From positions 6,267-70,266 of the forward strand of contig JAQXPH010000031.1 of NCBI GenBank assembly GCA_029100545.1: a DNA stretch of 64,000 nt, read 5' to 3'. Shown here in pieces: positions 3 through 52,360 of the stretch. The position numbers and the translations under genes are program-made. The notes beneath the pieces were generated by a model that was not told where the DNA came from, did not search any database, and was given only the letters and a program-made list of their open reading frames with translations. The first letter of the stretch is position 1. Each line of letters begins with the position of its first letter. This DNA comes from a bacterium. Its GTDB lineage: Bacteria; Bacillota_I; Bacilli_A; RF39; UBA660.

Positions 3-1649
3 ATGGTTGAAGCAGGATGTAAAGAACTTCCAGAAAAAACAATGCTTGAAGCTTTAATGTTTGCTCATGAAAATATAAAGATGCTTTGTGATTTTCAAAA
101 TGAAATTATAAGTGAAATAGGTAAAGAAAAAGTTGAGTTAGAACCAGCCTCTATTGATGAAAGTGTTGAACAAATGGTTCGCCAGTATGCTACAAAAGAT
201 ATGCTTGAGGCTATTCAAATTAAAGAAAAATTAGAAAAATATGCTAAGATTGATGAAGTTAAAGAAAATACTATTGCTCATTTTGAAGAAGAATTTGCTT
301 TAGATGAAGACAAAGATAAAAAAATGAAAGATGTTAGCAAAGTAGTTAACTTAATCGAAGGAAATGAAGTAAGAAGATTAATTATTGAAAAGCATATTAG
401 ACCTGATGGTAGAAAAATGGATGAAATAAGACCACTTCATGCTGAAGTTGATTTATTACCAAGAACTCATGGTTCAGGATTATTCTCTCGAGGAGAAACT
501 CAAGTTTTAGCTACTACTACTCTTGGACCACTTTCAGATCATCAAATTCTTGATGGACTTGGAATTGAAGACACTAAAAGATTTATGCTTCATTATAATT
601 TCCCTAATTTTTCAGTAGGAGAAATTGGAAGATATGGCTCTCCAGGAAGAAGAGAAATTGGCCATGGTGCACTTGGTGAAAGAGCGCTTCTACAAGTTAT
701 GCCAAGTGAGGAAGAATTCCCTTATACTGTTCGAGTTGTTTCTGAAGTACTTGAAAGTAATGGTTCTTCATCACAAGCAACTATATGTTCTGGATGTTTA
801 TCACTTATGGCTGCAGGTGTTCCTATTAAAGCACCAGTTGCTGGAATTGCAATGGGTTTAATCTCTAATGGTAAAAAATATACAATTTTAACTGATATTC
901 AAGGCCTTGAAGATCATATGGGAGATATGGACTTTAAAGTTGCTGGAACTAGAGAAGGTATTACAGCCCTTCAAATGGATATTAAAATAAAAGGCGTTAC
1001 AAAAGCAATTTTAAAAGAAGCCCTTGATGAAGCTAAAAAAGCTAGAATGAAAATCCTTGATGTTATGGAAGAAGTTATTTCAATGCCACGTAAAGAACTA
1101 TCTAAATATGCTCCAAAAGTTGAAACATTTACTATTAATCCAGATAAAATTAAAGATGTAATTGGTAAAGGTGGCGAAATGATTACTAAAATTATTTTAG
1201 AATCATCAAATGTAAAAAGTGTAAATGATAAAGATGCTGTTAAAGTTGATATTGATGATGATGGCAGAGTAATTATTTATCATATGGATAAAGAAGTAAT
1301 TGATAAAACAAGACAAATGATTGAAAATATTACTAAAGAAGTAGAAATTGGTAAAATATATAATGCAAAAGTTGTTAAAGTTGAAGATTTTGGTTGTTTT
1401 GTAGAACTATGGCCTGGTTGTGAAGGACTAGTACATGTATCACAACTTGATAGTAAAAGAGTAGAAAAACCTAGTGATATAGTTTCTGTTGGTGATGAAA
1501 TTGTAGTAAAATCACTTGGCTTTGATAATAAAGGAAGACTAAATTTATCAAGAAAAGATGCTTTACCAAAAAGTAATGAAGAAAAAGAAACAAAAGAAAA
1601 AAACAAAGAAGTAAAAACCAAAGGTCTTTTTGGAAAAAATAAAAAATAA
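3..1649 (+). CDS. pnp: polyribonucleotide nucleotidyltransferase (PNPase), 5'-truncated by the window edge
   Basis: The ORF is open at the window start. It shows RNase PH-like core motifs ([27 protein letters not shown]), a KH motif (VIGKGGEMI) and an S1 motif ([20 protein letters not shown]). Confidence 0.95.
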
Positions 1650-1681
1650 TTTAAAAACTATAGATTAATTTTTATTATTGA

Positions 1682-1712
1682 AATTCTAACTAGAAAATGT
1701 TAGAATTTTTTT
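1682..1712 (+). terminator. intrinsic terminator after pnp
   Basis: The stem aattctaac/gttagaatt is followed by a T-run. Confidence 0.6.
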
Positions 1713-1730
1713 ATAAGGTAGGATTCTATA

Positions 1731-3977
1731 ATGGAAGAAAAAAATTATAAAAATGTTAAAGTAGTAGCGGTAGTAGCAAGTGCTTTTTTGTTATTTATTA
1801 TTTTCGCGGCAGCATTTGCTTATTTTGGAACATTTAATATTGATTTAAATAATAATGTAGCAGTAAATATTTATGCACAGCAAGGTGGCGCGTCTTCATT
1901 TACAGCAACAGCAGCTCAGCTTAATCTTCAGGTGCCAGCATCTGCGATGAGTCAGTCAAATTCTGAAAGTGGTAATGCAGTACTAGCGGCAGAAAATACA
2001 GCAACATTAAATGTTACATTAAAAGGTGCCGAAGGAATGCTTACAACCTGCACATATAATATTATTTATGAATATGATAATACTTCAGAAACTTATGGAA
2101 ATAGTGTAGCAGTAACAAGTGGAGCAGATAAAGAAATAACTCTACAGGTTAGTGGGGCAAGCAGCACAAGTAATTATTATGAAACAGAAAGAAACTTTAA
2201 TTACTATAGTGGAAGTAATGGAGAAGATACAACTGATGTATGGGAAAGTTCCACCAAAAGATATTTAGTAAAAGAAGCAAAAATAAGTAGTGCAGGAACA
2301 GAAGTAACTTCAGTATGGAATATAACAGGAAGATATTATAATTTAGATGTAAGTCAATCCCAACTAGAAGGAAAAAGTTTTACAGGTAAAATATATGTAG
2401 ATCCAAATTATGATTGTAGTACTAGTGAAGACAAGACACTTTATTCTTTGGTAAGAAAAAAATATAACGAAGGAAATACATTTGTAAAACTTTATGATGG
2501 AGAAGGCTCAGATACCTATGTAAATCCAGTATACTATTATAATGGTGCAGTACAGGATAATAATGTTTTATTTGCAAACTTTTGTTGGAAAATAGTTAGA
2601 ACTACTGATACTGGAGGAGTTAAATTAATTTATAATGGAACGCCAAAAACAACTGCCGAATTAATTCCATTAGAAGAATCACAATATTTAAATTTATCAA
2701 ATGATGCTAGCTACCCATATACATTTGATAGCACTAATAAAACATGGACAAGTACAAATAAAACAGATAGTGCGACAGGTACAATAACTTTTACTGTAGC
2801 AGAAGCAGGAGATTATGTTCTATCATATACTGTTTCTTCAGAGGGAAATTATGATAAAGCAATATTTTATAAAGATGATACAGTACTTGACACTTATAGT
2901 GGTGAAGACAGTGGAAGCATTACTCTAGATGGTCTTACAACCTCAAATGTAATAAAAGTTGAATATACAAAAGATGAATCTGAAGCAAGTGGTAGTGATA
3001 ATGTAGTATTTAGTTTAGGTAAACCATCTGGTAATTCATATTTAAAATGTAATAACACGGGAACTGATTCTCAAATAGGAAAAAGTTCATTTAATAGTAG
3101 TTACACTTCTCCTGCCTATGTAGGCTATATGTATAATACTGTATATACTTCTTCAAATAAATCAATGTCATCATTATCTAATATAGTATTTGGTAATTCA
3201 TTTACATATTCAGGAGGAACGTATACACTCACTGATACAATGGCAGTAGCAACTTTGTCAAGTGGTTATAATACAATAAATAATAATCATTATACGTGTT
3301 TTACTACAGGTACTACTTGTTCGGATTTATATTATGTATATTACACTTCTTCTTATCAGTCATATTATATAACCCTTACGGGTGGTAAATCTGTGGGTGA
3401 TGCTTTAAATGAAATGTTATATGCAGATGATGTAAATAAAACTGATTCTGTTATGAAAACATATATAGAAACTTGGTATGAAAATAATATGACCGCATAT
3501 ACATCATATCTTGAAGATACAACTTATTGTAATGATCGAAGTATAAATGACTTAGGGGGATGGAATCCAAATGGCGGAAGTACAACTGGTTCATCATATT
3601 ATTTACAATTTAAAAATTATAATACAAATTATAGTTTAGTATGTGGTAATGTTACAGATCAGTTTAGAGTAGGAAATACAAAAGCACCACTTAAATATCC
3701 AGTAGGTTTACTTACAGCTCCAGAAGTATGCCTAGCATATAAAGATGCAAGTTATAGTACTTATTATTTAAATACAGGAGAGTATTATTGGCTTGGGTCC
3801 CCTGGCAGCTTTTACGACATCACTGCTTACGGGCGTAACGTCAATAGTTCGGGTAGCATGAGCGTCATCTACCCCGTGTACGATTCTATTGGGGCCCGGC
3901 CGTCCGTTTCCTTAAAACCTGGCACCGGATATATTTCAGGAAATGGGTCATATACTTCACCTTATTTGATAGAATAA
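1731..3977 (+). CDS. DGR variable (target) protein, remote copy, with an N-terminal signal anchor and VR2 at the C-terminus
   Basis: A GGTAGG RBS precedes the start. The N-terminal TM segment ends in the FAYF motif. The C-terminal ~500 aa are about 90% identical to ORF 31567..33732. The GC-rich segment 3786-3912 matches the TR at 33896-34019. Confidence 0.85.
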   Translation: MEEKNYKNVKVVAVVASAFLLFIIFAAAFAYFGTFNIDLNNNVAVNIYAQQGGASSFTATAAQLNLQVPASAMSQSNSESGNAVLAAENTATLNVTLKGAEGMLTTCTYNIIYEYDNTSETYGNSVAVTSGADKEITLQVSGASSTSNYYETERNFNYYSGSNGEDTTDVWESSTKRYLVKEAKISSAGTEVTSVWNITGRYYNLDVSQSQLEGKSFTGKIYVDPNYDCSTSEDKTLYSLVRKKYNEGNTFVKLYDGEGSDTYVNPVYYYNGAVQDNNVLFANFCWKIVRTTDTGGVKLIYNGTPKTTAELIPLEESQYLNLSNDASYPYTFDSTNKTWTSTNKTDSATGTITFTVAEAGDYVLSYTVSSEGNYDKAIFYKDDTVLDTYSGEDSGSITLDGLTTSNVIKVEYTKDESEASGSDNVVFSLGKPSGNSYLKCNNTGTDSQIGKSSFNSSYTSPAYVGYMYNTVYTSSNKSMSSLSNIVFGNSFTYSGGTYTLTDTMAVATLSSGYNTINNNHYTCFTTGTTCSDLYYVYYTSSYQSYYITLTGGKSVGDALNEMLYADDVNKTDSVMKTYIETWYENNMTAYTSYLEDTTYCNDRSINDLGGWNPNGGSTTGSSYYLQFKNYNTNYSLVCGNVTDQFRVGNTKAPLKYPVGLLTAPEVCLAYKDASYSTYYLNTGEYYWLGSPGSFYDITAYGRNVNSSGSMSVIYPVYDSIGARPSVSLKPGTGYISGNGSYTSPYLIE
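3786..3912 (+). repeat. DGR variable repeat VR2 (remote)
   Basis: It aligns with the TR. Most mismatches fall at TR adenines inside AAY codons. It shares the ggcttgggtcccct 5' end and the ggggcccgg 3' GC block, and is 3 nt longer than the TR. Confidence 0.8.
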
Positions 3978-4019
3978 CGGAAGAGGGAAGTAGGTGCCGT
4001 GCGCTTATCACTAGTAAGT

Positions 4020-4043
4020 CCTCGCGAGAACCCTTTCGCGAGG
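4020..4043 (+). promoter_or_regulatory. GC-rich hairpin in the 3' flank of target gene 2 (cctcgcga ... tcgcgagg)
   Basis: This is a perfect 8-bp GC-rich inverted repeat that can be extended to about 10 bp around the loop ACCC. The same element occurs at 33774-33797 after target gene 1. No T-run follows it. Confidence 0.7.
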
Positions 4044-4086
4044 CGCCGAAGTAATAAATTAACGCAAATAATGAATTGTGAATAGA

Positions 4087-4187: not shown

Positions 4188-5411
4188 ATGAGAAAACGTT
4201 TTAAAGGATTATTATGTTTTATTGCTTTTTTATTAATATTATCTACTATCTTATTTGTCTTTTATTTTATATATACTAAATTAAATAATAATGATGGTGA
4301 TATTAAAATAACAGGTAGTTTATCTATTAATTTTCATGATGGAAATGTAATAGATTTTGATAAGTCAAAAGATACTGTTATAACTATAATAAATAATGGT
4401 AATGAAGGAGTATATTATTATATTGAATTTATAAATTTAAATAGTGAAACAGATATTAATTATTCATTAACTGATAATAATGTTATTAATATAAATGATA
4501 TATTATCTAATCAAAGTGAAATAATATCAAGTTATATTTTTATTGATGCTGGAGAAATACAAAACTATGATTTAAAATTTAGTTCTTCTTCTGAAAATAC
4601 TAAAAGAATTGAAATAAATATTGAAGAAGAAAGTCTTGAAAGTAACTCTTTTGCTGAAACAATATTAAAAAATGATGTTGTAAAAGATAAACCTCTTACA
4701 ATTGTAGGTAAACAGGAAGCTACTACTGATGAAGGTTTAATTGAAGAATCTGATGATTTTGGTTCATCTTATTATTTTCGTGGTAACACTTTAAATAATA
4801 ATGTTTTAATAAATAATTTAAAATTCAAAATAGTAAGAATTAATGGTGATGGTAGTGTTAAACTTGTTTTAGATGAAAATATTGAAAAATTATCTGAATA
4901 TTATGAAGATGGAAACTATAAATTTAAAGAAACTACAATTTATTCAGCACTTAATAGTTGGATAAATGAAAATCTTGGTAAATATTCTTCTTTTTTATCA
5001 AATCAAAAATATTGTAATGATACACTTTTAAATGAAAATACTTTTTATGCTTATACAAGAGTTATGGAAGATAATATACCATCACTTATATGTTTAAGTG
5101 AAAAATTTACGAGTAAGGTTGCTCTTTTAACCGTTGATGAAGTTCTTTTTGCAGGTGCTACCATAAATAATGAAAATAAATCATTTTATCTTTATAATGA
5201 AAATATTACTTCTGATATATATTTAATGACATCAGCAAAATTATTAAATAATACTTATTATCCTTTTGTTTTATCTACTACTGGAAAAATAGAAAGTGAT
5301 GTACCAGGAACTTATTTAAGAAGTGTTAGACCTGTTATAACTATTATTAAAACAGCAATGGTTACTGGAACTGGTACTATAGATGATCCATATATTTTAA
5401 TTGAAAGTTAA
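4188..5411 (+). CDS. non-diversified paralogue of the DGR-target family, a membrane-anchored surface protein
   Basis: An AAGGAG RBS precedes the start and there is an N-terminal TM segment. Family motifs are SSYYFRG, KFKIVRINGDGSVKLV, YCND, ALLTVDEVLFAG and VRPVITI...GTGTIDDPYILI. The region equivalent to the VR is AT-rich and unlike the TR. Confidence 0.8.
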   Translation: MRKRFKGLLCFIAFLLILSTILFVFYFIYTKLNNNDGDIKITGSLSINFHDGNVIDFDKSKDTVITIINNGNEGVYYYIEFINLNSETDINYSLTDNNVININDILSNQSEIISSYIFIDAGEIQNYDLKFSSSSENTKRIEINIEEESLESNSFAETILKNDVVKDKPLTIVGKQEATTDEGLIEESDDFGSSYYFRGNTLNNNVLINNLKFKIVRINGDGSVKLVLDENIEKLSEYYEDGNYKFKETTIYSALNSWINENLGKYSSFLSNQKYCNDTLLNENTFYAYTRVMEDNIPSLICLSEKFTSKVALLTVDEVLFAGATINNENKSFYLYNENITSDIYLMTSAKLLNNTYYPFVLSTTGKIESDVPGTYLRSVRPVITIIKTAMVTGTGTIDDPYILIES

Positions 5412-29807: not shown

Positions 29808-29837
29808 TTGACATATAATATTACTTTGTGGTATTAT
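29808..29837 (+). promoter_or_regulatory. candidate promoter of the paralogue/DGR-target operon
   Basis: TTGACA is followed about 18 nt later by TATTAT, which is preceded by TGg (extended -10). It lies about 30 nt upstream of the ATG at 29868. Confidence 0.45.
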
Positions 29838-29867
29838 TTTATTAGAGTAGAGAAAGGTATTTTTATT

Positions 29868-31556
29868 ATGAAATTAAAAGATATAATAATAAAAAATAAA
29901 TATAAATTATTAACAATTATAGGTGTTTTATTAACTTTTTCAATATTACTTGCAATATCTTATGCTTTTTTTGGAAGGGTTATAGAAAATACAAATACTA
30001 ATGCAATATCTGAAATAAATACATCTTATTATTCATTTACTGCAACAGGTGATATCAATATATCACTTACTTTAAATGAAGAATTATTAGGAGTTGAAAG
30101 TGCAAATAATACAGTTCCTGCGTTTACATCAAATGGTGGTAATTTAAATTTAAATTTAACTACTTTAGATAGTGCAAAAGATATTTCTTGTACTTATGAT
30201 ATTGTTTATGAACCAGTTGATGCTATAAATTCCTCAAACAATATAAATGAATTTACAATAGCAGGTGAGTCAACATCTGGTTTATCTTTTAATGAAACTA
30301 ATGTAGTAGGATCAAATCCAGTTATTCTTATATCTAATGCTTTAATTAAGACAAATGCATCTTCTTCACTTACAACATTAGATTCTTGGAATTTTACAAT
30401 TAATTTTTATAATTTAAATGCTATTCAAGATTATATTGTTGGTACAAATATAAGTGGTAATATTAAACTTGAAAATATTAATTGTGGATTCAATAGTAAT
30501 ATAGAGTATGGCTATGAAACTATTCTTACCCAAAATGGAGGAAAAACTGCAATAGAATCAAAAGGTACACCTAACTTTTTAACATATGAAAAAGGAGTAG
30601 TAGGAATGTATGCAGCAGAAGATGACCTTGGAACTTCTTATTACTTTAGAGGAAAAGTTAATAATAACTGGGTAAAATTTGGAAAATATATAAGTGATAT
30701 GTATTATAATTCAAGTGATAAGACATTATATAATGCATGCCCAGCTGGTGGGTCATGTACAAAGATAGCTTCCTCTGGGAATGAAATGTACTGGCGAATA
30801 ATAAGAATAAATGGTGATAATTCTATAAGAATGATTTATTCGGGAGTAACACCGCCATTAGAAACAAAACAATTTGTTATGGAAGATAACAATTATTCAA
30901 TAACAATTGGTTCGACTCCATTTAATACAAGCGGTGATAAATCAGAATATGCGGGATATATGTATACTTTAGGACAGCAACATGGAACAAGTACAGATAG
31001 TACAATAAAAACATATTTAGATAATTGGTATACATTTACAAATCTATCAACATATTATGCAAAAGATTTAATAGCAGATCAAATATATTGTAATGATAGG
31101 AATACATCAAGTACATGGGAATCAACACCCGCTGATATAATGGCTTATTCGTCTGGAGAAAGACTAAGCAATGGAACACCAAGTTTAAAATGTTCAATTA
31201 AAGAAGATAGATTTACGGTAAATGATGTAGTTAATGGCAATGGGAAATTAACCAATCCTGTAGGTTTAATAACGATTGATGAGTTGTTATATGCAGGTAC
31301 TAACCAAGAAAACGCAAATAGTGCATGTTATTTATATACCGGATCAAATTATTGGTCTGGTTCACCATTTGGATTTGTAAAAAGTTATGCTTTTACAAAT
31401 ATTATCAAAGAAGATGGAACTTTAAACGTCGATAGTGTTGAACAGAATATTGGAGTTCGCACAGTAATTTCTCTATCATCTAATGTTAAGTTATATGGTT
31501 CAGGGTTATATAGTAATCCATATGTTATTGAAAATCCAAATTTAGATGTCCAGTAG
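29868..31556 (+). CDS. non-diversified paralogue of the DGR-target family, a secreted or surface protein
   Basis: The signal-anchor segment ends in ISYAFFG. Family motifs are GTSYYFRG, YWRIIRINGDNSIRMIY, YCNDR, PVGLITIDELLYAG, NYWSGSP and GVRTVISL...GSGLYSNPYVI. The region equivalent to the VR is AT-rich. The ORF is open from TTG 29808. Confidence 0.8.
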   Translation: MKLKDIIIKNKYKLLTIIGVLLTFSILLAISYAFFGRVIENTNTNAISEINTSYYSFTATGDINISLTLNEELLGVESANNTVPAFTSNGGNLNLNLTTLDSAKDISCTYDIVYEPVDAINSSNNINEFTIAGESTSGLSFNETNVVGSNPVILISNALIKTNASSSLTTLDSWNFTINFYNLNAIQDYIVGTNISGNIKLENINCGFNSNIEYGYETILTQNGGKTAIESKGTPNFLTYEKGVVGMYAAEDDLGTSYYFRGKVNNNWVKFGKYISDMYYNSSDKTLYNACPAGGSCTKIASSGNEMYWRIIRINGDNSIRMIYSGVTPPLETKQFVMEDNNYSITIGSTPFNTSGDKSEYAGYMYTLGQQHGTSTDSTIKTYLDNWYTFTNLSTYYAKDLIADQIYCNDRNTSSTWESTPADIMAYSSGERLSNGTPSLKCSIKEDRFTVNDVVNGNGKLTNPVGLITIDELLYAGTNQENANSACYLYTGSNYWSGSPFGFVKSYAFTNIIKEDGTLNVDSVEQNIGVRTVISLSSNVKLYGSGLYSNPYVIENPNLDVQ

Positions 31557-31566
31557 AAAGGAATAT

Positions 31567-33732
31567 ATGAAAAATAGAAATATAATATTAAGTGTTATTG
31601 TTTTATTACTTATACTTTGTACAGGTATATCTGTTTCATATGCCTTTTTTAAAATATCTAAAAGTACTCAAGATCCAAATATTACAGTAAATATTGATAA
31701 TGTTCCAGCATGTGTTTCTCTTCAGATGACTAATACTAATATTGTTTCAATTACAAATGAATATGCAGTTCCTATAACAGATGCTAAAGCATTATCTTCC
31801 GATGTATATAAAACTTCTTTTGATGTTATTAATAATTGTGACTCTTCAAAAGATTTAACTATATTACTTGCTCCTACTAATAGTTCTACTATGCCAGTAA
31901 GTGCATTAAAATATGCTTTAGTAGAGCAAAGTGAAGTGCCTTCAAGCGGAACATTAATTTCAGATAAATTAGGTTTAAATAATGGGACAAAACTTGAACT
32001 TAAACAAAAATATAATCAAGATATATCAATAGGTTATAGTGTAGGTAATAAGACAGTACCCGCTAAAACGACTAAAAGTTATAATTTATATTTATGGATA
32101 GATGAAAATGAAGGTGGTCTTGGACAAAATATTACTATGAATAAGTTATTTGAAGGATATATTGTACTTGGTTCAGGTTCGTTAGGAACTCCGCCTACGC
32201 CACTATATGATACTATTCAAGCAAAATATAATGAAGGAAATACATTTGTAAAACTTTATGATGGAGAAGGATCAGATACTTATACAAACTCAGTATACTA
32301 TTATAATGGTGCTGTTGAAGATAATAATGTTTTATTTGCAAACTTTTGCTGGAAAATGGTTAGAACTACCGATACTGGAGGCGTTAAATTAATTTATAAT
32401 GGAACGCCAAAAACTATTTATGAATCTGTTAATCCATTAGAAGAATCACAATATCTAAATCTATCAAATGATGCAAACTATCCATATACATTTGATAGCA
32501 CTAATAAAACATGGACAAGTACAAATAAAACTAATAGTGCAACAGGTACAATAACATTTACTGTAGCAGAAGCAGGAGATTATATACTATCATATACTGT
32601 TTCTTCTGAAAAAAATTATGATAAAGCAATATTTTATAAAGATGGTACAAAGCTTGGCACTTACAGTGGTTCTGTAAGTGGAACAATTAATCTAGATGGT
32701 CTTACAACTTCAAATGTAATAAAAGTTGAATATACAAAAGATTCATCAGCAGCAAGTGGAAGTGATAATGTAGTCTTTAGTTTAGGTAAACCCTCTGGTA
32801 ATTCATATTTAACATGCAATAACACGGGAACTGATTCTCAAATAGGTACAAGTAAGTTTAATAGTAGTTATACTTCTCCTGCATATGTAGGTTATATGTA
32901 TAATACAGTGTATACGTATTCATCTAAATCAATGTCATCATTATCTAATATAGTATTTGGTAATTCATTTACATATTCAGGAGGAACGTATACACTCACT
33001 GATACAATGACAGTAGCAACATGGTCAAGTGGTTATAATACAATAAATAATAATCATTATACGTGTTTTACTACAGGTACTACCTGCCCATCTTTATATT
33101 ATGTATATTATACTAATTCTTCAACTGCATATTATATAACACTTACGGGTGGTAAATCTGTGGGTGATGCCTTAAATGAAATGCTATTTGCTGATGATGT
33201 AAATAAAACTGATTCTGCTATAAAAACATATATAGAAACTTGGTATGAAAATAATATGACAGCATATACATCATATCTAGAAGATACAACTTATTGCAAT
33301 GATCGAAGTATATTAAATTTAAATAGCTGGAATCCAAATGGAGGAGATGTAAGAAGTTATTTACAATTTAAAAATTATAATACAAATTATAGTTTAGTAT
33401 GTGGTAGTGTTACAGACCAGTTTAGAGTAGGAAATACAAAAGCACCACTAAAATATCCAGTAGGTTTACTTACAGCGCCAGAAGTATGGCTAGCTTATAA
33501 AGACGCAAGTTATAGTACATATTATTTAAATACAGGAAATCTTTATTGGCTTGGGTCCCCTTACGACTTCGACTACTATAGTGCAGTCGGGCGTAGCGTC
33601 GATAGTTCGGGTCTCATGAGCAACTACTACGTGAACGACTCTGGCGGGGCCCGGCTGGCCGTTTCCTTAAAACCTGGCACCGAGTATATTTCAGGAGATG
33701 GGACATATACTTCGCCATTTTTGATAGAATAA
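31567..33732 (+). CDS. DGR variable (target) protein, cassette-proximal, with VR1 at the C-terminus
   Basis: The ATG follows an AAAGGA RBS; an in-frame ATG at 31546 is an alternative start. The signal anchor ends in VSYAFF. The family motifs are present. The C-terminal GC-rich segment 33544-33667 matches the TR. Confidence 0.9.
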   Translation: MKNRNIILSVIVLLLILCTGISVSYAFFKISKSTQDPNITVNIDNVPACVSLQMTNTNIVSITNEYAVPITDAKALSSDVYKTSFDVINNCDSSKDLTILLAPTNSSTMPVSALKYALVEQSEVPSSGTLISDKLGLNNGTKLELKQKYNQDISIGYSVGNKTVPAKTTKSYNLYLWIDENEGGLGQNITMNKLFEGYIVLGSGSLGTPPTPLYDTIQAKYNEGNTFVKLYDGEGSDTYTNSVYYYNGAVEDNNVLFANFCWKMVRTTDTGGVKLIYNGTPKTIYESVNPLEESQYLNLSNDANYPYTFDSTNKTWTSTNKTNSATGTITFTVAEAGDYILSYTVSSEKNYDKAIFYKDGTKLGTYSGSVSGTINLDGLTTSNVIKVEYTKDSSAASGSDNVVFSLGKPSGNSYLTCNNTGTDSQIGTSKFNSSYTSPAYVGYMYNTVYTYSSKSMSSLSNIVFGNSFTYSGGTYTLTDTMTVATWSSGYNTINNNHYTCFTTGTTCPSLYYVYYTNSSTAYYITLTGGKSVGDALNEMLFADDVNKTDSAIKTYIETWYENNMTAYTSYLEDTTYCNDRSILNLNSWNPNGGDVRSYLQFKNYNTNYSLVCGSVTDQFRVGNTKAPLKYPVGLLTAPEVWLAYKDASYSTYYLNTGNLYWLGSPYDFDYYSAVGRSVDSSGLMSNYYVNDSGGARLAVSLKPGTEYISGDGTYTSPFLIE
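33544..33667 (+). repeat. DGR variable repeat VR1
   Basis: It is 124 nt and colinear with the TR. About 19 of about 21 mismatches sit at TR adenines, and 14 of the 16 TR AAY codons are altered. It encodes YWLGSPYDFDYYSAVGRSVDSSGLMSNYYVNDSGGARLAVS. Confidence 0.9.
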
Positions 33733-33773
33733 CGCAGTAATAAGTAGGGTGCCAACACTTTACACTAGAAAGT

Positions 33774-33797
33774 CCTCGCGAAAACCCTTTCGCGAGG
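33774..33797 (+). promoter_or_regulatory. GC-rich hairpin in the 3' flank of target gene 1 (cctcgcga(aa)-accc-(tt)tcgcgagg)
   Basis: It is an 8-10 bp GC-rich inverted repeat with a 4-nt loop, about 105 nt downstream of the VR1 end. It is the same as the element at 4020-4043. Confidence 0.7.
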
Positions 33798-33895
33798 CGC
33801 CGAAGTAAAAAAATAACGCTAAGATAAATAAGAGGGAAAAATATTGGGTTAAACATAAAGTTTAATCTAGGATTATGTCGTAATAAAAGTATAGC

Positions 33896-34019
33896 TTTTG
33901 GCTTGGGTCCCCTAACAACTTCAACAACAATAATGCTAACGGGCGTAACGTCAATAGTTCGGGTAACATGAGCAACAACAACGTGAACAACTCTAACGGG
34001 GCCCGGCTGACCATTTTCT
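33896..34019 (+). repeat. DGR template repeat (TR)
   Basis: It is intergenic and GC-rich relative to its surroundings. In the VR frame it reads FWLGSPNNFNNNNANGRNVNSSGNMSNNNVNNSNGARLTIF*, with 16 AAC/AAT codons. Its 3' end (ccattttc) differs from both VRs (ccgtttcc), as expected for IMH* versus IMH. Confidence 0.9.
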
Positions 34020-34193
34020 AATAATAATTTAATCTTTGCTAAATTTATAATATTTAATATTATGGTGAAATTTAGCATTTCATAATTGGAAACAGATATA
34101 ATTCTATGAACTTATGTTCTAAAAATATATGTAGTGTAGGCTATGCTAGTTATTTAATAATTAGCATAGCAATTTATTACTAAAGGATAAAGG

Positions 34194-34550
34194 ATGAATA
34201 GTAATAATGATTTTATTTTATTAAAAAGAGTTAATATATTTAATGATTATATTAATCAGTATGTTGTTTCATTAATACCAAGTGTTCATCGAGATATTAA
34301 AATACATTTGCTTGATGAAAGTTATAATTTACTTAAAAATTTATATGAAGCAATATATAATAAAGGCAATATTAGAAATAAATATATAATAGAACTACTT
34401 GTTTGTATTTCACTTATAGATGGTTTATTAGGTAGTATTATGAAATATAATAAAAATAAACATATTATTAAAGCTATTAATTTATTAACTGATATAAAAA
34501 ATATGACTTATGCATGGAAGGCAAATATTAGTGAAAAAGAAGATAAATAA
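34194..34550 (+). CDS. avd: Avd-like accessory variability determinant (four-helix-bundle protein)
   Basis: The protein is 118 aa, basic and predicted all-helical. Its pattern (...LIPSVHRDIKIHLLDES..LLKNLYEA ... ELLVCISLIDGLL ... LLTDIKNMTYAWK) resembles the four-helix-bundle family found next to DGR RTs. It lies immediately upstream of the RT and overlaps it. Confidence 0.75.
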   Translation: MNSNNDFILLKRVNIFNDYINQYVVSLIPSVHRDIKIHLLDESYNLLKNLYEAIYNKGNIRNKYIIELLVCISLIDGLLGSIMKYNKNKHIIKAINLLTDIKNMTYAWKANISEKEDK

Positions 34551-35997
34551 TATATATTATAAATATTTAACATTTGATAATTTATTAAATTGCTATAATA
34601 TTGTAAAAAAAACTTGTAAGAATAAAAAAGCAATTAATAGATTTGAAATGAATAAATATACTAATATTTATAATATATATAAATCTTTATATAATAAAAC
34701 TTATAAACCATATAAATATACATTATTTATGATATTTGAACCAAAACCAAGACTTGTTATGAGTCAAACTATATCTGATAAAATAGTAAATCATTTTGTA
34801 AGTAAATATTATTTAATACCTTTTTTATCTAATAAATTAATTTATAGTAATGTAGCAACTAGAATAAATAAAGGAACTAAACTTGCAAATAAATTAGTGA
34901 TTAAATATATAAATAATATAAGAATGAATAATAAATTTGAAAATATATATACTTTAAAAATTGATATAAGTAAATATTTTTATAATATTAATCATAAAAT
35001 ATTAATTAATTTATTAAAAAATGATTTTTTAGATAATGATGTAATTAATTTAATTAAAATTATACTTAATGAAACAAATAGTAATTATATAAATGAAAAA
35101 ATTAAAATATATAATCAAAAATATAAATGTGATATACCATTATATAAAAAAGATATTGGTTTAAGTATTGGAGCAATGTCAAGCCAGTTTCTTGCAATTT
35201 ATTATTTAAATAAATTAGATCACTATATAAAAGAAATACTTAATTGTAAATATTATATTAGATATATGGATGATTTTATTATACTAAGTAATAATAAAAA
35301 TTATTTAAAATATGTTTTTAAAAAAATAGAAAAACAAATTAATTATTTTGATTTAAAAGTTAATCCTAAAAGTAATATATATAATTTAAAATATGGAATA
35401 AATTTTTTAGAATATAGATATAAAATAATTAATAATAAGTTTTATATATTATATAAAAAAGGAAATATAAAAAGAATTAATAATAAATTAAAATTTTTAA
35501 AGAAATATGATTTATTAAAATATTATAAATCAAAAGCAAGTTATAATGGATATTTAAAAATAAGTGAAAAGGAATTTAAAATGAAAAGTATTGAAAAATA
35601 TGATTATTATAAAAATAATAATAAAAATGTAATAATATTTATAAAAGAGGGAGTTTTTTATAAAACCTATAATAATGATGCAATTATTATGTGGAATTTA
35701 TTTAAATATAAAATAAATAATAATAATTTATCATTTAGTATAAATACAAAAGATAAAGTTTTTAATTATTTAAATGAATTAAATATAGGTTATTTAGTTA
35801 TAGGTAATGATAATATTTATGTAAAAGGAAATGATGAAGTTTATAATTTATATAATAAGTTATCTAATATTTATTATGATAAATATAATAAAATAAGTAA
35901 GTTAAATGAATTAGTTGATAATTTATTAAATAAAGATATAAATAATTATGAAATTATATTAAATTTTTTAAATAAATTAAAAAAGGAAGTATTATGA
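34510..35997 (+). CDS. DGR-type reverse transcriptase with a C-terminal MutS-domain-I-like extension
   Basis: RT motifs are FEPKPRLVMSQTISDKIV, ATRINKGTKLA and KIDISKYFYNINH. The DGR-hallmark motif 4 is IGAMSSQ and the catalytic box is YIRYMDDFIIL. The start may be GTG 34531 rather than ATG 34510. The C-terminal ~140 aa lie beyond the RT core. Confidence 0.9.
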   Translation: MHGRQILVKKKINNIYYKYLTFDNLLNCYNIVKKTCKNKKAINRFEMNKYTNIYNIYKSLYNKTYKPYKYTLFMIFEPKPRLVMSQTISDKIVNHFVSKYYLIPFLSNKLIYSNVATRINKGTKLANKLVIKYINNIRMNNKFENIYTLKIDISKYFYNINHKILINLLKNDFLDNDVINLIKIILNETNSNYINEKIKIYNQKYKCDIPLYKKDIGLSIGAMSSQFLAIYYLNKLDHYIKEILNCKYYIRYMDDFIILSNNKNYLKYVFKKIEKQINYFDLKVNPKSNIYNLKYGINFLEYRYKIINNKFYILYKKGNIKRINNKLKFLKKYDLLKYYKSKASYNGYLKISEKEFKMKSIEKYDYYKNNNKNVIIFIKEGVFYKTYNNDAIIMWNLFKYKINNNNLSFSINTKDKVFNYLNELNIGYLVIGNDNIYVKGNDEVYNLYNKLSNIYYDKYNKISKLNELVDNLLNKDINNYEIILNFLNKLKKEVL

Positions 35998-49834: not shown

Positions 49835-52360
49835 ATGAAAAGATGTGAAGTAGATAGAAATAAATTGAGTCCAATGATGGCTCAATATATGGAAATTAAA
49901 GATAAATATCCTGATACATTATTATTTTATCGTTTAGGAGATTTTTATGAACTTTTTTTTGAAGATGCTTTAATTGCCTCAAAAGAACTGGAGTTAACTT
50001 TAACTGGTAGAGTAGCGGGACTTGATGAAAGAGTCCCTATGTGTGGTGTTCCATATCATGCTGTAAAAAGTTATATTGAAAAAGTAGTAAATAAAGGATA
50101 TAAAGTTGCAATTTGTGAGCAACTTGAAGATCCAAGATTTACTAAAAAAATGGTAAAAAGGGGAGTTACAGATGTAATTAGTAAAGGAACAATTGCTGAT
50201 TTAGAACTTCTTGATTCTCATAATAATTCATTTGTGGCATCATTATTAGAATATCCTGATCTATATATTTTAACAATGCTTGATATTTCTACAGGTAGTT
50301 TATTAAGTAATAAAATTTTAAAAAATGTTAATACTTTAGGTAATCAAATAGTTAAATATCAAATAAAAGAAATTGTTTTAAAAGATAATACTAATGCTAA
50401 TTTAATTAATGAATTAAAAAATAAATATAATGTTGATATTGATATTTGTCCGTATGAATTAGATAAAATTAATTCATTAATTGAAAATAAACTTTCTGAT
50501 GTAAGATGTGTAATTGGTGTAAAACATTTATTTTATTTTTTAATAAACACTCAACTTAAAGATTTATCTTCAATTGAGGATATTACTATTATTAATAATC
50601 AAGATTATTTATATATGGATGATTATTGTATAAATAATTTAGAATTAGTTCAAACACAAAGAAATAAATCTCGTGAGTTTTCACTATTATGGCTTTTAGA
50701 TAAATGTAGAACTGCTATGGGAAGTAGAAAACTTAGAAATATGCTTCTTAATCCTTTAAAAGATAAAGAACTTATTAATAAACGTTATGATATGATTGAA
50801 AAATTTAATAATGAATTTATTTTAAAAGATAAACTTATTACTAATTTAAATGAAATATATGATATAGAACGATTAACAGGAAAAATTACTAATGGTAGTT
50901 TAAATGCAAGAGATTTATTACAATTAAAAAGAAGCTTAAAACCACTTCCTGAAATTAAAGAAATAATAGATAAATTAAATTTTAATATTGAAATTGATAC
51001 ATTTGAAGACATATATAATTTACTTGAAAAAGCAATATATGAAGATCCACCAATAACACTTAAAGATGGTTATTTAATTAAAGATGGCTATAATAATGAT
51101 TTAGATGATTTAAGAAATATTAAAAAAAATGGTAAAGATTATATTGCAAAATTTGAATATGAAATTAAAGAAAAAACAGGAATAAAAAATCTTAAAGTTG
51201 GTTTTAATAAAGTTTTTGGTTATTATATTGAAATAAGTAAAGGACAAGCAAAAGATGTTGCTGAAAAATTTGGCTTTGAAAGAAGACAAACATTGGCTAA
51301 TTGTGAAAGATTTATTTCAAAAGAATTAAAGGAAAAGGAAGATCTTATATTAAATGCTGAAGAAAGAATAATTGATTTAGAATATGAACTTTTTATGGAA
51401 ATTAAAAAAGAAATAAAAAAATATGTTCCAAAACTTAGAAATACATCAGATAGTTTAAGTTATATTGATGTTATGAGTAACTTAGCAAATCTAGCTGAAA
51501 ATTTAAATCTAGTAAGACCACTTATTAATGATAATCACACAATTGATATAACAAGTGGTTGGCATCCTGTTGTTAAAAATACTTTAAAAGATGAATATGT
51601 GGAAAATGATTGTAAAATGGATGAAAAAACTTCAACATTATTAATAACAGGCCCAAATATGAGTGGTAAATCAACTTATATGAGACAAATTGCTATAACA
51701 ATTATTATGGCTCAAATAGGTTCTTTTGTACCTTGTAAGAAAGCTAGCCTTCCTATTATAGATAAAATATTTACTAGAATTGGTGCATCTGATGATTTAG
51801 CTGGTGGTCAAAGTACATTTATGGTAGAAATGAGTGAAGCAAACAATGCTATAAAAAATGCCACTGAAAATAGTTTGATTTTATTTGATGAATTAGGTCG
51901 TGGTACGGCAACTTATGATGGTATGGCTCTTGCTCAAAGTATAATTGAATATATTAATGAGAATATTAAATGTAAGACTCTTTTTTCAACTCATTATCAT
52001 GAACTTACTATTTTGGATAGAAAATATAATTCAATTAAAAATGTTCATGTAGATGCATCATTAAATGGCAAAGAATTGATATTTTTGCACAAAGTAAAAA
52101 ATGGTTCAATAGATAAAAGTTATGGAGTTCATGTCGCTTTTTTAGCAGGACTTCCAGATAAATTAATTGAAAGAGCTAATGAAATATTAAATACATTAGA
52201 AAATAAGTCTAATAATAAATGCTCATCAACTCAATTATCTTTTGATTTTGATGAAAAAAAAGAAGAGAAAAAAGATTATTTAAAAGATATTGATATAAAT
52301 AATATTACACCAATTGAAGCATTAAATATTCTTTATAAAATAAAAGAAGATAATAAATAA
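49835..52360 (+). CDS. mutS: DNA mismatch repair protein MutS
   Basis: Domain I carries GDFYELFFEDA, Walker A is GPNMSGKST, and STFMVEMSE and DELGRGT are present. Confidence 0.97.
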   Translation: MKRCEVDRNKLSPMMAQYMEIKDKYPDTLLFYRLGDFYELFFEDALIASKELELTLTGRVAGLDERVPMCGVPYHAVKSYIEKVVNKGYKVAICEQLEDPRFTKKMVKRGVTDVISKGTIADLELLDSHNNSFVASLLEYPDLYILTMLDISTGSLLSNKILKNVNTLGNQIVKYQIKEIVLKDNTNANLINELKNKYNVDIDICPYELDKINSLIENKLSDVRCVIGVKHLFYFLINTQLKDLSSIEDITIINNQDYLYMDDYCINNLELVQTQRNKSREFSLLWLLDKCRTAMGSRKLRNMLLNPLKDKELINKRYDMIEKFNNEFILKDKLITNLNEIYDIERLTGKITNGSLNARDLLQLKRSLKPLPEIKEIIDKLNFNIEIDTFEDIYNLLEKAIYEDPPITLKDGYLIKDGYNNDLDDLRNIKKNGKDYIAKFEYEIKEKTGIKNLKVGFNKVFGYYIEISKGQAKDVAEKFGFERRQTLANCERFISKELKEKEDLILNAEERIIDLEYELFMEIKKEIKKYVPKLRNTSDSLSYIDVMSNLANLAENLNLVRPLINDNHTIDITSGWHPVVKNTLKDEYVENDCKMDEKTSTLLITGPNMSGKSTYMRQIAITIIMAQIGSFVPCKKASLPIIDKIFTRIGASDDLAGGQSTFMVEMSEANNAIKNATENSLILFDELGRGTATYDGMALAQSIIEYINENIKCKTLFSTHYHELTILDRKYNSIKNVHVDASLNGKELIFLHKVKNGSIDKSYGVHVAFLAGLPDKLIERANEILNTLENKSNNKCSSTQLSFDFDEKKEEKKDYLKDIDINNITPIEALNILYKIKEDNK

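Follow-up and report, generated by a model that had tools for sequence, protein, structure and literature searches.

A probably stale DGR variable repeat in a paralogous target gene 30 kb from the TR

The 3' end of a gene lying 30.1 kb from the TR of a DGR carries a confirmed third copy of the repeat common to TR and VR1, and this copy, termed VR2, is probably a genuine but stale DGR variable repeat, whose extra codon would derive from slippage and whose non-adenine changes would derive from an older TR allele combined with drift. The repeat itself, its adenine bias, the position of its indel, the paralogy of the two target genes, the alleles of TR and the extent of divergence are observed directly; slippage, staleness and residual competence of VR2 are what we infer. 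The features are collected in Table 1, with positions given in the window, i.e., the whole 64-kb stretch of DNA, from a gut bacterium, that was analysed.

Table 1. Features of the two target genes and of the DGR cassette in the window
Feature	Position	Strand	Details
Non-adjacent DGR target gene	1731..3977	+	748 aa, N-terminal hydrophobic anchor; from ORF list
VR2, TR-homologous segment at 3' end of ORF 1731..3977	3788..3911	+	
VR2 5' anchor	3788..3803	+	
VR2 variable body	3804..3890	+	87 nt
Site of the 3-nt length difference	3864..3875	+	four NNC codons, GTC ATC TAC CCC
VR2 GC block	3891..3900	+	GGGGCCCGGC
VR2 IMH-like tail	3901..3911	+	CGTCCGTTTCC
GC-rich inverted repeat after VR2-gene stop codon	4020..4043	+	CCTCGCGAGAACCCTTTCGCGAGG; A>G in stem
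DGR-adjacent target gene	31546..33732	+	728 aa, carries VR1
VR1	33546..33666	+	
Inverted repeat after VR1-gene stop	33774..33797	+	10-bp stem, ACCC loop
TR	33898..34019	+	84-nt body = 28 codons, 17 AAC or AAT
IMH*-like 3' end of TR	within 33898..34019	+	TGACCATTTTC
Avd-like accessory ORF	34194..34550	+	118 aa, pI 9.1; from position (between TR and RT gene) and size
DGR-type reverse transcriptase (RT)	34510..35997	+	495 aa, MutS_I-like C-terminal extension

The sequence-only reading had reported a second TR-matching segment about 30 kb from the DGR at the end of ORF 1731..3977, and both the segment and the distance were borne out. The sequence it quoted is window 3801..3912, inside this ORF; BLAST with the VR2 region gives E = 2e-25 to TR and 1e-54 to the end of the VR1 gene; and the interval between VR2 and TR is occupied by housekeeping genes (recD2-like helicase, rpsD, hrcA-grpE-dnaK-dnaJ and others). 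The repeat occurs three times only in the window, as VR2, VR1 and TR. These copies have in common the anchor TTGGCTTGGGTCCCCT (starting at 3788, 33546 and 33898, respectively) and the block GGGGCCCGGC (starting at 3891, 33646 and 33998), after which both VRs read (C/T)G(T/G)CCGTTTCCTTAAAACC and TR reads TGACCATTTTCTAATAAT, i.e., an IMH versus a non-identical IMH*. The body between the anchor and GGGGCCCGGC is 84 nt long in TR and VR1 and 87 nt in VR2. The gene that hosts VR2 would encode a surface protein and is paralogous to the DGR-adjacent target gene, with 85% amino acid identity across the C-terminal 513 aa of the two products.

In the body, 16-17 of the 35 TR adenines are changed in VR2 compared to 4 of the 49 non-adenines (Fisher p = 3e-5 to 1.5e-4); for VR1, the corresponding counts are 17/35 and 1/49 (p = 2e-7). 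Both VRs thereby show the adenine bias relative to TR by which DGRs are recognized, and the earlier observation that most differences hit adenines stands, as does the assignment of VR2 as a DGR-type VR in a second, non-adjacent target. Given that the two genes are paralogues with the whole C-terminal region in common, it could be argued that VR2 was never written by the DGR and that its likeness to TR is ordinary paralogue sequence and divergence. This is scarcely credible, considering that changes are enriched at TR adenines (p about 1e-4), that nearly all positions distinguishing VR1 from VR2 are adenine-templated, and that VR2 is a GC-rich island within an AT-rich gene (GC of 0.56 versus 0.31 in the remainder of the gene; GC of the window, 23%).

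The RT of the cassette has the hallmarks of the DGR clade: its translation shows IGAMSSQ(F) and YMDD, corresponding to the motifs IGxxxSQ and YxDD, and it matches RVT_1 at 2.8e-13 and MutS_I at 1e-4. The avd-like ORF has no Pfam or NCBIfam match, and its cluster consists of 10 near-identical proteins, every one of which adjoins a TR remnant and an RT. Relatives number roughly 1,300 for the RT and 3,400 for the target. A search of viral contigs with the RT found no relative. Rfam gave no match at the hairpin or TR, and only four tRNAs elsewhere.

The differences of VR2 from TR at non-adenines are where VR2 departs from VR1: it has neither the near-complete non-adenine match nor the length equal to TR that would be expected of an active target. 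The sequence-only reading had counted about six such changes. Four of them do lie in the body, but the other two, CTG>CCG and TTC>TCC, belong to the IMH/IMH* zone, 3' of the GC-rich block. TTC>TCC is also found in VR1, and most relatives have CCG TCC here (GARPSVSL). Since they lie in the IMH zone and represent a widespread state, these two changes are not mutagenesis products; the zone would not be transferred during homing.

The four non-adenine changes in the VR2 body are all synonymous third-position transitions, three of them C>T. With uniform substitution, the probability that four out of four are synonymous is 0.016; assuming transitions raises it to 0.09, because the non-adenine sites are mostly third positions; with these values in hand, the synonymous-only pattern was downgraded from strong proof of drift. 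Among non-adenine third positions, VR2 differs from TR at 4/28 (14%) and VR1 at 1/28 (4%), while outside the VR the paralogues differ at 67/439 third positions (15%), a clock that is crude because gene conversion between the paralogues is possible. These figures suggest that VR2 was not rewritten recently, and the period without rewriting from the current TR may roughly match the divergence time of the paralogues. The three synonymous C>T changes would then represent AT-biased drift under purifying selection since the last homing, and the remaining one would be a TR allele that is still present in a sister strain. With its non-adenine differences thus assigned to a TR allele and to post-homing drift, VR2 looks stale.

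That TR alleles contribute is indicated by the sister strains, whose TRs match three departures of VR2 from the TR of the window, one in the body and two at the 3' end. The TR of L012 has AAC at codon 6 and reads AAC AAC AAC AAT, which removes the AAT>ATC anomaly of VR2, and the 3' end of the L020 TR is CCG TCC, the same as in VR2. The full TR is available in six contigs (the window's own in L016, plus L012-L015, L017 and L019), with four distinct sequences, and the AAC run is also visible in a deletion allele (L010) and a truncated one (L018).

The extra codon described earlier was found as well. It lies within the four NNC codons of VR2, opposite AAC AAC AAC of TR (33974..33982). Every TR allele in which the run is visible has (AAC)3 and none has (AAC)4, and reverse-transcription slippage is therefore favored over a lost TR allele. 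Most likely, RT would have slipped back by one repeat unit on AAC AAC AAC, thereby installing four NNC codons, when VR2 was overwritten by adenine-mutagenised cDNA from the TR of this lineage, an event that would have been independent of VR1. A second, unlinked TR with four AAC codons and VR2-type third positions could also have written VR2, or could still service it. Sister-strain TR alleles do differ at some positions where VR2 deviates, related genomes have three or more paralogous targets, and the visible portion of the genome is 64 kb only. We nevertheless consider such a TR improbable, as the window contains no second TR-like copy and no second RT, the sister strains offer no (AAC)4 allele, and the RT cluster has 4 members only, the next full-length RTs being about 65% identical.

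Related VRs deviate by -1 to +7 codons from a TR of constant length, mostly at runs of Asn codons. Some sister-strain TRs carry A-to-N-like changes, with AGC GTC TTC AAC replacing AAC AAC AAT AAT, and a TR::VR hybrid occurs in one contig. It is possible, though we offer this tentatively, that the DGR of this Bacilli lineage creates length diversity as well as substitutions, the additional VR2 codon being a case in which RT slipped on AAC repeats in a programmed or at least tolerated manner, and that the changes in TR and the hybrid hint at an occasional flow back into the template. If true, RT slippage would give the binding loop access to more sequences than adenine mutagenesis alone can produce.

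A GC-rich inverted repeat follows the GC block of the VR at a distance of about 120 nt and is conserved in nine independent copies; none follows TR. The VR2 hairpin folds with an 8-bp stem and an 8-nt loop, compared to 10 bp and 4 nt for the three other copies folded, and its stem change is unique among the nine, the other eight keeping the unmutated stem sequence. VR2 would retain its cis elements, namely the 5' homology, the GC-rich IMH and a slightly damaged downstream hairpin, which would allow targeting in trans.

These retained elements, together with a TR, avd-like ORF and RT that are all intact in this strain, are also what an active trans target would display, in which case the latest retrohoming would have introduced the additional codon along with all four non-adenine changes, as non-canonical errors of a low-fidelity RT. 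There is precedent, since Wu et al. 2018 (PMC5758913) described DGRs with one clean target and another bearing an indel and 7 non-adenine changes, and raised the possibility of an added mutagenic capability. VR2 may also be fully targetable and rarely hit, considering that its gene is intact and that the CCGTCC type of IMH is found on the TR-adjacent VR in L012. However, an origin in RT errors would predict neither exclusively synonymous changes nor a C>T direction like that of genomic drift; other TR alleles account for one change and for the CCG TCC tail; and the divergence level of VR2 equals the paralogue background. We therefore judge current activity to be unlikely, although it is the strongest competitor of a stale VR2. 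The sequence-only reading had proposed servicing of two targets in trans, with an older TR, slippage or drift as alternatives; as far as sequence comparison can tell, the TR-allele matches, the synonymous C>T changes, the third-position divergence and the uniform (AAC)3 runs favor the latter.

Variation at VR2 within the species was sought by a full-length protein search, a search with the C-terminal 128 aa and cluster look-ups, which returned singletons only: the protein clusters of the VR2 gene, the VR1 gene and the neighboring gene are all singletons. Among VR2-type relatives, the nearest has 71% identity and lies in another genomic context (L001/L002), and exact-protein look-ups of the NCBI MAG relatives P0004 and P0009 gave no record. 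At the DNA level, the pattern GGCTTGGGTCCCC-N(70-100)-GGGGCCCGG was scanned, yielding one relative (L003) and one chance match in genome contigs, only chance matches in high-GC contigs in JGI metagenomes, and nothing in viral contigs. None of the three scans revealed a locus orthologous to the VR2 gene. The VR1 locus has different VRs in strains L012 and L015 and in MAG L003.

The pig-gut run SRR21376883 contains this strain at 99.99-100% identity. The sole other contig of this strain at the VR2 gene, from Logan, has its boundary at 3932, just 3' of VR2, which could reflect heterogeneity as expected for an active target; another paralogue with the same gene end could equally cause the break. 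Because it falls outside the mutagenised zone, 20 nt beyond VR2, the break was set aside as inconclusive. The TR contig of the same Logan run starts inside the VR1 hairpin.

The protein of 1731..3977 itself has no Pfam match, and DUF6273 is matched by 14 of the 34 relatives of its C-terminal region. The AF2 model of the C-terminal domain is mediocre (pLDDT of 66), and neither Foldseek nor a profile search of PDB sequences found a significant match in PDB. Antibody light chains were rejected as its fold, since these top matches were noise (E > 0.01). For DUF6273, a C-lectin-like model that exposes the VR at the surface has been published (PMC10743442).

VR2 illustrates how a multi-target DGR may age: as the template evolves, its changes are passed on to the adjacent VR, but a paralogous VR at a distance can fall behind and preserve the marks of former TR alleles and of slippage. 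In annotation, a VR should therefore not be disqualified by a small number of non-adenine mismatches and an in-frame indel, and the pattern also bears on judging which DGR targets still diversify. The case reveals no new mechanism, as each of its features was catalogued earlier. Specifically, Wu et al. 2018 (PMC5758913) already described non-adjacent targets, non-adenine substitutions and 3-nt indels beside AAC.

In the same survey, non-adjacent or remote targets were found in 45/372 DGRs (PMC5758913). As in the remote-target DGRs, such as that of Treponema denticola, a single TR-avd-RT cassette is accompanied here by more than one VR-bearing paralogous target, one of them tens of kb away with unrelated chromosomal genes between, and the element is not phage-borne. 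The difference is that two targets are visible here and the distant one seems, by its sequence, to lag the current TR. With the length-variant DGRs (Wu et al. 2018, Fig. 4C-E; ANKO01000117.1_3531_4562), the system shares the occurrence of several non-adenine substitutions along with a 3-nt in-frame indel facing a run of AAC codons, and in both cases the two targets of one DGR differ in these respects. Wu et al. proposed AAC-repeat slippage from 25 DGRs with TR/VR length differences, and considered that non-adenine changes and indels were possibly made in retrohoming itself. Here, in contrast, the sister TR alleles and the synonymous AT-directed changes point to TR turnover and drift rather than to non-canonical mutagenesis.

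The DGR of Bordetella phage BPP-1 (mtd VR/TR/avd/brt) likewise has adenine-specific TR-to-VR differences, a GC-rich block at the 3' boundary followed by an IMH unlike the IMH* of TR, a GC-rich inverted repeat (the downstream cruciform) 3' of VR and not of TR, a small basic accessory protein (a putative one here), and an RT with IGxxxSQ and YMDD. Unlike BPP-1, the element studied here is chromosomal with the gene order target-TR-avd-RT, its inverted repeat lies after the stop codon at the distance given above, its RT has the MutS_I-like extension, and its target domain is DUF6273-like and not Mtd. Finally, the DUF6273 'tentaclins' of gut Firmicutes phages and prophages (PMC10743442) resemble the present targets in that relatives of the C-terminal domain match DUF6273 and in having more than one target per DGR. 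The window's own protein is below the Pfam threshold, and whereas tentaclins are phage receptor-binding proteins, the targets described here are large cellular membrane-anchored proteins.

The sequence-only reading had placed a second TR-matching segment (VR2) at the 3' end of an ORF remote from the DGR, and this is borne out. By BLAST, the VR2 region matched VR1 (E = 1e-54, paralogous gene end included) and the TR (E = 2e-25), and nothing else within the window. All three repeats have TTGGCTTGGGTCCCCT in common 5' of the body and GGGGCCCGGC 3' of it; this body measures 87 nt in VR2 and 84 nt in both the TR and VR1. Of the 35 adenines in the TR body, 17 are changed in VR1 and 16-17 in VR2, against 1 and 4, respectively, of its 49 non-adenine bases (Fisher p = 2e-7 for VR1 and 3e-5 to 1.5e-4 for VR2), so the proposed concentration of differences at TR adenines holds, and the two loops are indeed wholly different (YDFDYYSAV... 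in VR1 versus GSFYDITAY... in VR2). The host proteins both begin with a hydrophobic anchor and are 85% identical over the C-terminal 513 residues, their N-terminal parts being unrelated. Because the hosts are paralogous and their genes lie 30 kb apart with housekeeping genes between them, VR2 is a true non-adjacent VR outside any prophage. The target domain is related to DUF6273 but divergent from it; 14 of 34 relatives match that family and the window protein itself does not. DUF6273 has been called C-lectin-like in a paper on phage DGR targets (PMC10743442); our model of the C-terminal domain was too weak for confirming this predicted fold.

Coordinates of the DGR, the VR2 locus and associated features in the window
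Feature	Position	Remarks
VR2 gene	1731..3977	preceded by PNPase gene; no upstream equivalent of the 582-aa ORF
VR2 sequence as first quoted	3801..3912	
VR2 body non-adenine changes	3812, 3821, 3884, 3890	C>T, T>C, C>T, C>T
VR2 codons at the indel	3864..3875	GTC ATC TAC CCC
Post-stop segment, VR2 gene	3978..4060	hairpin 4020..4043
582-aa ORF	29808..31556	no family match; overlaps start of adjacent target gene by 11 nt; position kept in L003 (305..2011)
DGR cassette	31.5-36 kb	
DGR-adjacent target gene	31546..33732	carries VR1, 33546..33666
Post-stop segment, VR1 gene	33733..33815	hairpin 33774..33797
TR	33898..34019	
Avd-like ORF	34194..34550	118 aa, basic, pI 9.1; no family match
RT gene	34510..35997	RVT_1; IGAMSSQ and YMDD motifs; MutS_I-like C-terminal extension (residues 361-405, E = 1e-4)
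XerC/D-like recombinase gene		directly 3' of RT gene; start codon overlapped by RT stop
mutS, full-length	49835..52360	14 kb downstream of RT gene

The surrounding chromosome piece is bacterial and very AT-rich (23% GC), with genes for PNPase, a recD2-like helicase, rpsD, hrcA-grpE-dnaK-dnaJ, trigger factor, relA, mutS and smc, and uncultured 'Bacilli bacterium' MAGs, together with contigs from animal-gut metagenomes, come closest to it in the databases. The 582-aa product may work in partnership with the variable protein. The MutS_I-like stretch is precomputed also for many RT homologues, and such C-terminal extensions were noted in three RTs by Wu et al. 2018 (PMC5758913).

Six non-adenine changes had been counted in VR2, of which four lie in the body. 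The other two, CTG>CCG and TTC>TCC, sit past the GC block, in the recognition sequence outside the mutagenised tract. TTC>TCC is found in VR1 too and is thus the usual difference between the VR and TR recognition ends (IMH and IMH*); CCG TCC (…GARPSVSL) is the state in nearly all relatives, in the TR-adjacent VR of sister-strain contig L012 and in the TR of L020. All four body changes are third-position transitions that are synonymous given the adenine-site changes (chance P of 0.016 with uniform substitutions, 0.09 with transitions only), a pattern that is suggestive of drift but not decisive.

Sister-strain TRs, taken from contigs L010-L022 of an Avd-like cluster of ten near-identical proteins (flanking DNA 92-97% identical), are polymorphic. 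L019 has the window allele with GCC for ACC at the 3' end; L020 ends in CCG TCC, like VR2; L012 reads AAC AAC AAC AAT, which removes the AAT>ATC anomaly of VR2; and L013, L014, L015 and L017 have AGC GTC TTC AAC at codons 4-7 against AAC AAC AAT AAT in the window. These last changes are A-to-N-like within the template itself, possibly acquired when a VR converted the TR or when cDNA homed into it. In L017 (1..560; ENA ERZ27250409 k141_1809855) the TR 5' flank is joined to a mutagenised VR-like body and then to the VR 3' flank (IMH, gene end, stop, hairpin), after which spacer, TR and avd follow as normal; the arrangement is either the expected product of unequal VR/TR crossover or an assembly chimera. 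Decay is also seen: L010 (= L009) has a 33-nt deletion inside its TR (143..260) and its RT is broken into pieces of 281 and 138 aa (731..2184), the RT of L011 is likewise split, and L022 (1..205) retains avd and the RT gene but has lost the entire TR, the loss lying between two short repeats, TTTGGCT and TTTGCT. The TR-avd-RT module (about 33857..35993) is a presence/absence polymorphism, since in L003 (MAG Bacilli bacterium PUUB50_bin.015, 4315..4365) the syntenic target gene, hairpin and spacer abut the XerC/D-like recombinase gene, TR, avd and RT all being absent. In a more distant subfamily (P0056-P0120, 928-940 aa) the VR seems to have become fixed in a widely distributed species, an identical peptide, VNFDYFDAYVWVAFSGGLTSYKLYNSR, recurring in dozens of contigs and clusters.

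The extra VR2 codon was correctly placed opposite the TR AAC AAC AAC, and all four codons there are NNC, as expected for four copied AAC units. Every TR allele with a visible run has (AAC)3, namely six full-TR contigs (four distinct sequences) plus L010 with its deletion and L018, which is truncated; none has four. That VR2 is served by a second, unlinked TR seems improbable. VR bodies vary widely against the 28 TR codons (VR1 0, VR2 +1, L015 +3, L012 +7; among relatives P0004 +2, P0014 +5, P0019, P0041 and P0122 -1), mostly within Asn-codon runs. A mutagenised VR is no longer repetitive, making later replication slippage unlikely; given this, the varying VR lengths and the fact that no (AAC)4 TR was seen, the simplest reading is that the RT slipped at the AAC run while making cDNA. 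Wu et al. proposed the same from 25 DGRs in which TR and VR differ in length, 74% of them beside AAC (PMC5758913). It is conceivable, though doubtful, that AAC-run length diversification is a regular output of this lineage, perhaps with occasional feedback into the TR; this would be of moderate interest, as it is an idea already published.

Judged from these comparisons, VR2 is probably stale, last written from a slightly different TR allele with AAC-run slippage included. A VR regularly refreshed from its template should differ from the TR at close to none of its non-adenine third positions, yet VR2 differs at 4/28 (14%; VR1 at 1/28), and the paralogues differ outside the VR at 67/439 (15%). 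With an L012-type allele taken into account, the three body changes left over are all C>T, the drift direction at 23% GC, and the VR2 3' end and one body position agree with TR alleles different from the current one. The post-stop hairpin counts the same way: its stem sequence is the same in eight other independent copies (10 bp with a 4-nt loop in three that were folded), and in VR2 an A>G leaves a stem of 8 bp. Hairpin included, some 80-100 nt past the stop codon are conserved among target paralogues at three separate chromosomal locations (also L001 12233..12315); lacking a T-run, the hairpin is no classical intrinsic terminator. Against staleness, the VR2 gene is intact, its 5' homology and GC block are perfect, and the strain's TR, avd and RT are undamaged. 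Moreover, TR-adjacent sister-strain VRs show 0-5 non-adenine mismatches of the same kind, so VR2 is no worse than many of them. Current activity with non-canonical mutagenesis nevertheless appears rather unlikely. An orthologous VR2 locus was not found in genome, metagenome or viral-contig scans, the clusters of the VR2, VR1 and downstream 407-aa proteins being singletons. The sole other contig of the strain, L005 (Logan SRR21376883_13616, 99.99% identical), comes from an independent assembly and begins at 3932, 20 nt beyond the VR2 end (3911); this break may reflect either a third paralogue that shares the gene end or population heterogeneity.

Overall, the sequence-only interpretation of VR2 is partly supported. 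As reported by Wu et al. 2018 (PMC5758913), 45 of 372 DGRs had non-adjacent targets, 23% carried non-A-to-N substitutions and 7% differed in length between TR and VR (mostly by multiples of three and beside AAC); about one third had inverted repeats 3' of the IMH, and in some DGRs the two targets were unlike in substitutions or length. The remote target, non-adenine changes and AAC-side indel of VR2 are therefore all precedented, and VR2 is a further example of described DGR features, none new by itself.
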